Both the position numbers and the translations under genes were made by a program. A DNA stretch of 10,882 nucleotides from a virus (lineage: Duplodnaviria; Heunggongvirae; Uroviricota; Caudoviricetes): the IMG/VR virus record IMGVR_UViG_2681813320_000023; one strand, 5' to 3'. The notes under the pieces were generated by a model that saw only the letters and a program-made list of their open reading frames with translations, was not told the origin of the DNA and did no database searches. How positions within the stretch are numbered: the first letter of the stretch is position 1; every line of letters begins with the position of its first letter. Shown here piece after piece: positions 2,775 to 3,742 of the stretch.

Positions 2775-2972
2775 ATGGCTGGAACACAGCATACCCCACG
2801 TCTGGCGCACACACAAACTGCCTTTGTGTGGCGTTTTCTGGCACTGAGTGCCGGAGAATCTCAAATCATCCACGTAACCGCCTGGACGGAACGCGAAGCG
2901 CGTAGCCGTTGCCCGTCAGGTTGTGTTGCTGTATTTGCCGCCCGTATTCGTCAGGGGTCACATCATGCGTAA
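2775..2972 (+). CDS. Small protein, Icd-like (host cell division inhibitor-like) family candidate, 65 aa
   Basis: RBS AGGAG (2762-2766), ATG 2775, stop TAA 2970-2972. Motifs FVWRF ... TEREAR ... FAARIRQG resemble the small Icd-like leader proteins of P1/P4-type immunity regions (from memory, not searched). Paralogous to the C-terminus of the next ORF. Confidence 0.5.
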   Translation: MAGTQHTPRLAHTQTAFVWRFLALSAGESQIIHVTAWTEREARSRCPSGCVAVFAARIRQGSHHA

Positions 2973-3429
2973 AAACCGCTTGCAAAAAATTATCACGGGG
3001 CTGTATGCTTCCCCCGTCGCCCACATGGCGACCGGGTTTGACAGCCTGAATACATCTGGCGGACAGCCGCCCACATCCGATAAGCGGTTTTTTTGTGTCC
3101 GTAAACCTACCCATACCCGCATTATGGCGGGGCGTAACGGGGGAGCCTTTGTGCTCGCTGGTTTCCAGATGACCAGTCTGTCAACCCTGTTACGTCTCGC
3201 CACCATGTTTGACAGCGTAGTAGCGAGACTCCTTAAAATTCATCTGGGAGCCTTTCACATGGCTGTATCCGCACGCCCTTACTTTGTCTGGCGCTTTATG
3301 CAGTGCCTGACAGACAGCATTGCAATATTCACCGTTACCGCTGCCACTGAGCGCGAAGCACGCGCACAGCTGCCGCACGCACATCTTATTTTTGTCGCCC
3401 GTATTCGTCAGGGGGTGTGCCATGCCTGA
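2965..3429 (+). CDS. Hypothetical protein (155 aa) whose C-terminal ~56 aa is a second Icd-like copy; alternatively a separate 56-aa Icd-like ORF starting at ATG 3259
   Basis: ATG 2965 overlaps the upstream stop (ATGCGTAA), with AGGGG at 2953-2957. The C-terminal segment MAVSARPYFVWRF...TEREAR...FVARIRQG is paralogous to ORF 2775..2972 at protein and nucleotide level. GGGAG lies 8 nt upstream of the internal ATG 3259, so the true start is ambiguous. Confidence 0.4.
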   Translation: MRKNRLQKIITGLYASPVAHMATGFDSLNTSGGQPPTSDKRFFCVRKPTHTRIMAGRNGGAFVLAGFQMTSLSTLLRLATMFDSVVARLLKIHLGAFHMAVSARPYFVWRFMQCLTDSIAIFTVTAATEREARAQLPHAHLIFVARIRQGVCHA

Positions 3430-3742
3430 CATGACCAATTACCAGTACCTGATTAATACGCATTTTAACTGTGAGCATGATATTGCTAAAAAGGTTTATT
3501 CCGCTGCGGATGGGGCTACTGACAATATATCAATGGCTGTTTCGTCAATTGGTAGCCTGATGTGGTATGCGTCAGAAAATAAGGAATATGACGAAAAGGC
3601 CATGCGCATTGATATGGGTAATATCGGTTTGTTACTGGCAATGCTTGGACAGTTTGATATTTCGTTACGGTGCACCATTGAAAATGCCACAGATGCATTA
3701 AATGCTATAAAGAAAGCGAATACTGATTTAAATCGGGGATAA
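3422..3742 (+). CDS. Hypothetical protein (106 aa), AT-rich cargo ORF
   Basis: ATG 3422 overlaps the upstream stop by 8 nt (ATGCCTGA), with RBS AGGGGG at 3410-3415. Stop TAA 3740-3742. Markedly AT-richer than flanking genes. No recognisable family. Confidence 0.45.
   Translation: MPDMTNYQYLINTHFNCEHDIAKKVYSAADGATDNISMAVSSIGSLMWYASENKEYDEKAMRIDMGNIGLLLAMLGQFDISLRCTIENATDALNAIKKANTDLNRG

Follow-up and report, generated by a model that had tools for sequence, protein, structure and literature searches.

Two small open reading frames (ORFs) in a 10,882-nucleotide (nt) stretch of viral DNA (Caudoviricetes; IMG/VR record IMGVR_UViG_2681813320_000023, hereafter the window) raise a simple question. 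Both resemble the Icd family, both end in nearly the same sequence, and in both cases the stop codon overlaps the start codon of another frame. What is this arrangement for? An earlier note on the window saw in it a translational-coupling adaptor used twice to drive different downstream genes, as for icd-ant in phage P1. Our analysis suggests that coupling is one part of the answer. The interval between the two ORFs (2973-3258) contains an antisense RNA gene (c4) and its four target sites, and the region as a whole is probably an RNA immunity module of the P4/P1 type, lying in the early operon of a phage-inducible chromosomal island (PICI). Coordinates of the features are collected in Table 1.

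Two Icd-like ORFs with a common 3' end

The two ORFs, of 65 and 56 amino acids (aa; copy 1 and copy 2 below), can be aligned by BLASTP over 49 residues, 25 of which are identical (51%, E = 3e-13). Both exceed the curated cut-off of 25 bits for NCBIfam family NF033153, phage_ICD_like (“host cell division inhibitor Icd-like protein”), and copy 2 does so as well when scored within the 154-aa ORF that contains it (49.9 bits); no Pfam model was found for either. An AGGAG motif (2762-2766) lies upstream of the copy 1 ATG. Near their 3' ends, the copies share an exact 18-mer, GCCCGTATTCGTCAGGGG, at 2940-2957 and 3397-3414, within 24-nt stretches (2934-2957 and 3391-3414) that are 96% identical. By an arithmetic estimate, about 1e-3 exact repeats of 18 nt would be expected by chance in 10.9 kb, and the similarity of the two copies and of their ends is far above chance. 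The repeat is followed by ATGCGTAA (2965-2972) in copy 1 and by ATGCCTGA (3422-3429) in copy 2, so that in each case the 8 nt from the A of the ATG to the last base of the stop codon belong to both frames. The reading frame steps +1 at each junction, with starts at 2775, 2965 and 3422 corresponding to 0, 1 and 2 modulo 3. The claims of the earlier note that two paralogous Icd-like segments are present, and that they share one junction architecture, are thus borne out.

For comparison, we assembled 80 related loci from viral contigs and added chromosomal loci of E. coli, P1 and P4. The junction ATG is kept in all 27 distinct loci that have an Icd-like ORF followed by a c4 gene. The last codon of the Icd-like ORF, which overlaps this ATG, varies at these same junctions, specifying Ala, Val or Glu. 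Hence, it appears to be the ATG, and not the amino acid, that is constrained. It is plausible that the conserved 18-mer has a dual role, encoding the residues ARIRQG and providing a Shine-Dalgarno (SD) sequence, AGGGG, 6-7 nt before each overlapping ATG. Such a role would explain why the 18-mer is exactly identical in copies that are only 51% identical as proteins.

These observations refine the idea of an adaptor used twice. It stands for the second junction, which joins an Icd-like ORF to a 106-aa ORF and is also present in locus L003, a relative with one Icd-like gene but lacking c4. It needs amending for the first, which opens a frame across the c4 gene and its targets rather than an ordinary gene.

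An antisense RNA gene between the copies

The interval matches the full-length Rfam model for C4 antisense RNA (RF01695), and a blastn search against phage genomes aligned 3028-3217 with the c4 regions of P1, P7 and D6 at 76-80% identity. Homology with P1 c4 predicts a mature RNA of about 3126-3204. In silico, this RNA folds with a free energy of -45.9 kcal/mol (z = -6.4) into a long closing stem and two hairpins, and the closing stem is followed by CCA (3203-3205). The loop of the second hairpin contains the b' sequence, CCAGATGA (3165-3172), and a single-stranded linker contains the a' sequence, CTGTCAA (3178-3184). The b' loop is complementary to CATCTGG upstream (b1, 3053-3059) and to TCATCTGG downstream (b2, 3240-3247), while the a' linker is complementary to TTGACAG on both sides (a1, 3038-3044; a2, 3209-3215). 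With two G-U pairs, the b2 duplex extends across TCATCTGGGAG (3240-3250) and covers GGGAG (3245-3249), the SD of the 56-aa ORF, which ends 9 nt before ATG 3259. The order and spacing of a1, b1, c4, a2, b2 and ATG match those annotated for immI in P1. Sequence and comparison among loci (below) both support the RNA, its targets and the predicted placement of b2 on the SD. We regard it as almost certain that this is a c4 RNA and that it would control the 56-aa ORF.

A candidate promoter for the RNA, with hexamers TTGCAA and TATGCT, can be aligned both with P1c4/P51b, a promoter annotated in P1 (TTGACC/TATAGT), and with TTGCCT/TATAGT of P4, which we take as PLE; it is predicted solely from this alignment. 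The promoter homologue lies downstream of ATG 2965, where the P4 model would require an internal promoter.

Might a second, degenerate c4 gene precede copy 1? We rejected this candidate, as all RNA families fall below threshold in 2590-2990. A hairpin at 2711-2744 was likewise rejected as a c4 remnant, since it is not unusually stable (z = -1.4), and chance seems to account for the 7-8-nt matches of c4 stem bases to 2711-2718 or 2758-2764.

Loops and targets co-vary among related loci

If the RNA acts by pairing, loop and target sequences should differ between loci in concert. We located c4 genes in the related loci with a profile built from the Rfam matches, obtaining 33 distinct modules with 21 loop/linker combinations (16 b' loops and six a' linkers). 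All four target sites of a module are the complement of its own loop and linker. Under a criterion of at least seven contiguous Watson-Crick pairs, 20 of 21 b2 sites pair with their own module's loop, compared to 4 of 410 combinations between modules. For a2, the corresponding values are 21/21 and 0/316. The b2 site ends 9-12 nt before the ATG of the short ORF in every module. This co-variation provides strong evidence for a functional RNA, and for the start of the 56-aa ORF as the regulated one.

The distinct loci fall into several arrangements: a single Icd-like gene (33 loci), icd-c4-icd as in the window (20), c4-icd-c4-icd (7) and c4-icd (6). Where an element has two c4 genes, these differ from each other in loop and linker, and each has targets that fit it, which would make them non-cross-reacting immunities within one element. 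Tandem c4-icd modules in two complete copies were seen in L004, L009, L014, L018, L022, L031, L032 and L038. The many loop/target specificities suggest that satellites carry varied, mutually non-interfering RNA immunities, and this variety could bear on which satellites coexist in, or exclude each other from, one cell. Some match to 2775-3480 was found in 1740 of 5426 complete E. coli genomes, 67 of which carry at least 80% of the region. A profile search of genome contigs with the Icd-like alignment confirmed one locus, and hence gives no view across species.

One could also imagine that the window merely records a tandem duplication of an Icd-like gene, in which the similar ends reflect recent ancestry and have no regulatory meaning. 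The 51% identity and the identical 18-mer are what such an event would leave. But the copies have otherwise diverged around an exact 18-mer, and a complete c4 module lies between them. Moreover, the layout recurs in the 20 loci mentioned above, and the seven with c4 before both copies have differing specificities. The Rfam matches and the loop/target co-variation already contradict a duplication without regulatory meaning, and we consider it very improbable.

Comparison with P4, P1 and other systems

The mechanism of P4/P1 immunity was worked out in the 1990s. The module described here is probably an RNA-immunity switch of that kind, and our findings leave the underlying mechanism, already known, unchanged.

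For P4 itself, the CI RNA matches RF01695 at 74.9 bits, the isrK and c4-a1b1 families match the region upstream, and Kil matches NF033153 at 76.1 bits. The long ORF eta comprises 199 aa from its MMM start, and its last 65 codons are kil. Targets GTGAGAA and TTCACAGG(A) flank the RNA, with the downstream b site extending into GGAGG, immediately ahead of the kil ATG. Stop and start overlap both between vis and eta and, as GTGCGTAA, between kil and epsilon. According to the passages of PMC10111431 that summarise Forti et al. (1999), a constitutive promoter inside eta gives rise to a transcript that is terminated early via the CI and seqA interactions and is processed to CI, and Kil is the truncated product. 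Full-length eta is translated solely from an upstream promoter, coupled to the alpA homologue, and its translation prevents termination.

The window resembles P4 in several respects. In both, a long ORF encloses a C4-family RNA and has as its last 56-65 codons an Icd-like ORF with its own SD, and targets flank the RNA, the downstream one running into that SD. The start of the long ORF overlaps the stop of the gene before it and, in the window, would precede the predicted internal promoter, as it does in P4. The Icd-like ORF and the next gene share 8 nt (GTGCGTAA in P4, ATGCCTGA here), and a primase gene follows downstream. The two differ in their a and b specificity sequences and in their downstream genes, which here are not epsilon or orf151. 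In addition, the long ORF is coupled to Icd-like copy 1 here, whereas in P4 it is coupled directly to the alpA/vis homologue. The window also has an extra 377-codon frame, between alpA and copy 1 and antisense to a gene of the YlcI/YnfO family.

With P1 and P7, nucleotide identity is 76-80% over a1-b1-c4-a2, and the sites have equal order and spacing. P1 and the window have the same a target (TTGACAG) and a' linker, whereas the b specificities differ (GTTAGTG in P1, CATCTGG here). In P1, too, the gene after the Icd-like ORF begins before that ORF ends: the P1 record shows icd overlapping ant1 (ATGA), and states that ant expression apparently needs icd. However, P1 has a single icd gene, an overlap of 4 nt rather than 8, and no long frame through c4. 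Its next gene encodes an antirepressor, whereas the downstream gene of the window is not an antirepressor homologue, the 106-aa ORF having no match to ANT or AntA.

Mageeney et al. (2023, PMC10111431) report, in the passages bearing on this point, that the Rfam C4 and isrK profiles match several Gram-negative PICIs, and they propose P4-like immunity for them. The “Bro zone” immunity RNAs of those passages belong to the same kind of element as ours (int, alpA, primase and capsid gene). Those passages describe neither the icd-c4-icd tandem nor the conserved 8-nt joint, and neither the co-variation between loops and targets nor the variety of specificities. In the portions of the literature that we consulted, we similarly found no description of the tandem, of a fully conserved junction ATG, of specificity variation on this scale, or of an open frame from alpA to copy 1.

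Another system worth comparing is isrK-orf45-anrP of Gifsy-1 in Salmonella, where a small ORF likewise gates both translation and transcription of downstream genes (PMC4825925). Its authors liken IsrK to P4 seqA (PMC4825925), and in P4 and related loci the sequence preceding c4 matches the isrK family of Rfam. In the window, however, this region reaches threshold solely for c4-a1b1, and the Gifsy-1 short RNA activates translation rather than repressing it.

A long open frame through the RNA gene

From the junction 1 ATG, which overlaps the copy 1 stop by 8 nt, a frame of 154 codons runs to the end of copy 2. It encloses the targets and the RNA (3003-3250), and the short Icd-like ORF is nested at its end. 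Both the nesting and the anatomy of coupling are those of P4. Arguing from P4, it is slightly more probable than not that translation of the long frame serves to override immunity.

The mechanism that we propose would work as follows. A c4/CI-family RNA encoded at about 3126-3204 would pair through its b' loop and a' linker with a1/b1 upstream and a2/b2 downstream, and b2 pairing would mask the SD of the 56-aa ORF (ATG 3259). In the quiescent state, the internal promoter (2980-3009) would produce a transcript that is processed to c4. With c4 on its targets, copy 2 would remain untranslated, the untranslated RNA would be terminated, and the 106-aa ORF, the DUF4222 gene and the primase gene, the last being the presumed regulated output, would stay off. 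Upon induction, transcripts would begin further upstream. Ribosomes ending copy 1 at TAA 2970-2972 would restart at ATG 2965 and read the 154-codon frame through a1/b1, c4 and a2/b2, which would override the antisense block and prevent termination; they would then stop at TGA 3427-3429 and restart at ATG 3422. The coupling joint would be the conserved Icd-like 3' end, in which the ARIRQG codons double as an SD and are followed by ATG and stop. In this scheme, the 56-aa ORF would be the counterpart of P4 kil, translated under c4 control from the internal promoter, the 154-aa ORF would be the counterpart of eta, and both would be used. The earlier note asked whether the product is a protein of 155 aa or 56 aa. 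This is probably a false dichotomy, as P4 eta and the nested kil are both translated, under different conditions.

Is the long frame maintained? Among distinct frames from the junction 1 ATG, 23 of 24 run uninterrupted to the next Icd-like stop, mostly over 153-155 codons, and the frame in phase with the Icd-like ORF is stop-free across the c4 region in 30 of 33 modules, compared to mostly 4-7 stops in the other two frames; as the sequences are related, these counts are not independent, which tempers what they say for translation. In two lineages, pairs of +1 and -1 indels restore the frame. One of these, the L007 type, reads about 37 codons in another frame while its c4 still scores 74 bits. 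Variable columns are spread over the three codon positions as 39/39/35 in the first 98 codons, versus 24/19/37 in the Icd-like part. The long frame thus appears to be kept open without conservation of its amino-acid sequence.

These patterns bear on the possibility that the 154-aa ORF encodes a two-domain protein, namely an Icd-like effector with a functional N-terminal extension. The Prokaryotic Genome Annotation Pipeline (PGAP) and RefSeq treat the ORF as a 154-aa Icd-like protein (WP_001536911.1), the frame stays open across loci, and in a 2023 preprint a prophage system of strain ECOR61 is described in this way (bioRxiv 10.1101/2023.04.06.535777). Yet an RNA gene lies within the extension, and its loops and targets explain the pattern of conservation. 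The extension lacks the excess of third-position variation, its residues are replaced by a frame shift in one lineage with the RNA intact, and none of the families in Pfam, NCBIfam or PHROGs covers its 98 codons. On these four grounds we rejected the fusion protein, which the earlier note had entertained and which we judge improbable.

A more serious alternative follows P1. It holds that only the 56-aa ORF is translated, and that neither the 154-codon frame nor ATG 2965 is more than a by-product: the ATG would be left over from duplication of the Icd-like 3' end, the frame would have no stops because a conserved G+C-rich RNA happens to lack them, copy 1 would finish at 2972 with nothing coupled to it, and c4 would form a separate cassette driven by a promoter of its own. 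The flat codon periodicity of the first 98 codons is expected on this account, as are the 37 out-of-frame codons of the L007 lineage, where PGAP calls the homologue (2858-3322) a frameshifted pseudogene. The long frame is also intrinsically poor in stop-prone codons, the share of substitutions that would create a stop being 2.3%, as compared to 3.4-4.4% in the other frames.

Several further observations favour this account and weigh against override by translation, or against the module as we describe it. The P1 frame is closed by a stop 11 codons before the icd ATG, and P1 works nonetheless; in L035, the sole broken frame of the 24, one T has been lost from a T-run. It follows that translation through c4 is not required for a working c4 module. 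A test for stop avoidance in the window's clade was not significant and had low power (153 substitutions, with ~3.5 stop-creating changes expected and two observed in the reference context, neither of which yields a stop in its own sequence). The upstream target region barely reaches the gathering score of its Rfam family (RF03163 at 3003-3052; 46.8 versus 46.7 bits), and a consensus promoter scan of 2560-3480 called no promoters. BLASTP gave no alignment between copy 2 and P4 Kil, so their homology rests on profile matches. Finally, the promoter, processing, Rho-dependent termination, reinitiation at the junctions and override by translation are all carried over from P4 and P1.

Against the P1-like account stand the retention of the junction ATG in all 27 loci despite Ala/Val/Glu changes in the overlapping codon, the 23 intact frames and the two compensating indel pairs. 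The frame is also open in divergent module types and in P4, where translation of the equivalent ORF was found experimentally to prevent termination (Forti 1999, as cited in the relevant passages of PMC10111431). On balance we consider it unlikely that the long frame is a by-product.

A possible joint between cassettes, and the frame upstream of copy 1

The relative L003 (3176-3686; E. coli PEC122) carries a single Icd-like gene, with a body like that of copy 1 and a tail like that of copy 2, coupled directly to the 106-aa ORF, and c4 is absent. This looks like what recombination within the 18-mer would produce, be it by deletion or as a state in which the insertion has not been filled. Among the loci, the tails track the next gene: GSHHA with ATGCGTAA precedes c4 modules, and GVCHA with ATGCCTGA precedes ORFs of the 106-aa type. 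We put forward, tentatively, the possibility that the Icd-like 3' end is a joint at which c4-icd cassettes of differing specificity recombine in, recombine out or stack, with induction relayed by coupled translation. Such cassettes would fit the 16 b' loops and the non-matching c4 pairs within single elements. The relay may run from alpA through a frame of ~300 codons, open antisense to a regulator gene, and then through each c4 gene in turn. If so, one upstream signal could override several RNA immunities.

The copy 1 frame opens at 1782, directly after the alpA stop and in the same frame as alpA, which may be the gene where the translated chain would begin. It is open for 312 codons upstream of the copy 1 ATG, crossing an AT-rich divergent promoter and running antisense to the whole YlcI/YnfO gene. 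A frame this long, open opposite a real gene, is unusual. In the 377-codon ORF, the family match is confined to the C-terminal 44 aa, and residues 1-312 match no family, including those of PHROGs. For 96 distinct Icd-like ORFs, the median upstream open stretch is 135 codons (maximum 472), compared to 12-16 in either of the remaining frames. Of the 38 loci in which alpA was found, about 25 have no stop in this frame between the end of alpA and the end of the Icd-like ORF, and an ATG often occurs 9-11 nt after the alpA stop. Loci related to the window in this respect include L003, L004, L010 and L040. The 377-codon frame may be a read-through ORF of the eta type.

Between copy 1 and the YlcI/YnfO gene, the divergent promoter region (2610-2690) contains an exact repeat of TGTGATTCAGT (2610-2620 and 2655-2665), with inverted partners GAATCACA (2633-2640) and AATCACACCTCA (2679-2690). 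Judged by sequence, these paired repeats look like two putative operators.

Public annotation of the region

Public annotation hides the RNA gene. In the counterpart of the window with 98.5% identity (L001), PGAP annotates the 154-aa ORF (3866-4330, equivalent to 2965-3429 of the window) as the Icd-like protein noted above, and the start of the 377-codon frame (2740-3297) as an incomplete Icd-like pseudogene. The families phrog_1743 and phrog_6196 are labelled “transcriptional repressor”, as is a 137-aa “cI gene product” coding sequence in the P4 record. The PHROGs label is probably a legacy of the old P4 cI annotation. The practical value of our findings thus lies mainly in annotation and in the reading of “Icd-like proteins with long N-terminal extensions”. 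If the ECOR61 locus (bioRxiv 10.1101/2023.04.06.535777) is alike, its extension would contain a c4 RNA. Deletion of the gene would then remove the RNA and its targets as well, and the reading of the ECOR61 result would change.

The element and its gene map

The organisation of integrase-like, alpA, primase and capsid-like genes fits a Gram-negative PICI, here a satellite of E. coli phages; such islands have co-oriented int, alpA and primase genes, an optional capsid gene and a size of about 10-20 kb. The first ORF of the window (1-1218, 405 aa) has a counterpart in L001 that is annotated as a tyrosine integrase. E. coli NMBU-W12E19 carries the immunity region at 98.5-99.6% identity, varying with the part that is aligned.

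Table 1. Features of the window, with the matches or motifs that define them
Feature	Position	Strand	Basis or remark
alpA (AlpA/Vis-type regulator)	1593..1781	+	Pfam PF05930 Phage_AlpA, 65.2 bits
377-codon open frame ending in Icd-like copy 1	1839..2972	+	ORF list; antisense to YlcI/YnfO gene
YlcI/YnfO-family gene, divergent, candidate regulator	2282..2590	-	NCBIfam NF041551, 65.6 bits; phrog_6522, 192.5 bits
Icd-like ORF copy 1, 65 aa	2775..2972	+	ATG 2775, TAA 2970-2972; NF033153, 64.8 bits
Junction 1	2953..2972	+	SD-like AGGGG 2953-2957, ATG 2965, TAA 2970-2972; 8-nt overlap
154-codon eta-like frame	2965..3429	+	Spans predicted promoter, a1/b1, c4 and a2/b2; ends as Icd-like copy 2
Predicted internal promoter	2980..3009	+	TTGCAA 2980-2985, 18-nt spacer, TATGCT 3004-3009; downstream of ATG 2965
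Upstream target region	3003..3059	+	a1 TTGACAG 3038-3044; b1 CATCTGG 3053-3059; complementary to c4
c4/CI-type antisense RNA gene	3120..3207	+	Rfam RF01695, 72.6 bits (gathering score 45), full model matched
Downstream targets	3209..3250	+	a2 TTGACAG 3209-3215; b2 TCATCTGGGAG 3240-3250
Icd-like ORF copy 2, 56 aa, kil-like, nested in 154-codon frame	3259..3429	+	ATG 3259, TGA 3427-3429; NF033153, 53.7 bits
Junction 2	3410..3429	+	AGGGGG 3410-3415, ATG 3422, TGA 3427-3429
106-aa ORF, first gene coupled downstream	3422..3742	+	phrog_15327, 236.8 bits, function unknown
DUF4222 gene, downstream operon	3749..4048	+	PF13973, 60.2 bits
P4/D5-type primase-helicase gene	4045..5862	+	Matches to D5_N, DUF5906, Pox_D5 and TIGR01613

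Searches of Pfam and NCBIfam with the 106-aa ORF gave no match. The primase-helicase gene probably starts at ATG 4045, overlapping the DUF4222 stop, and its homologue in L003 is equally 1818 nt long. PADLOC returned no defence-system match for six proteins (those of both Icd-like ORFs, the 106-aa ORF, DUF4222, primase and YlcI/YnfO).

The late part of the island (7109-9687) begins with a 351-aa ORF (7109-8164) that, judged from its translation, resembles a lambda-type major capsid protein, and ORFs of 111, 137 and 180 aa come after it. The chromosomal context is as in L001, which adjoins a split tqsA gene: positions 1-713 of that locus hold a tqsA fragment without its N-terminus, beside the integrase gene. 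The last ORF of the window (10718-10882, minus strand) is presumably the N-terminus of TqsA, and the island seems to be inserted within tqsA.

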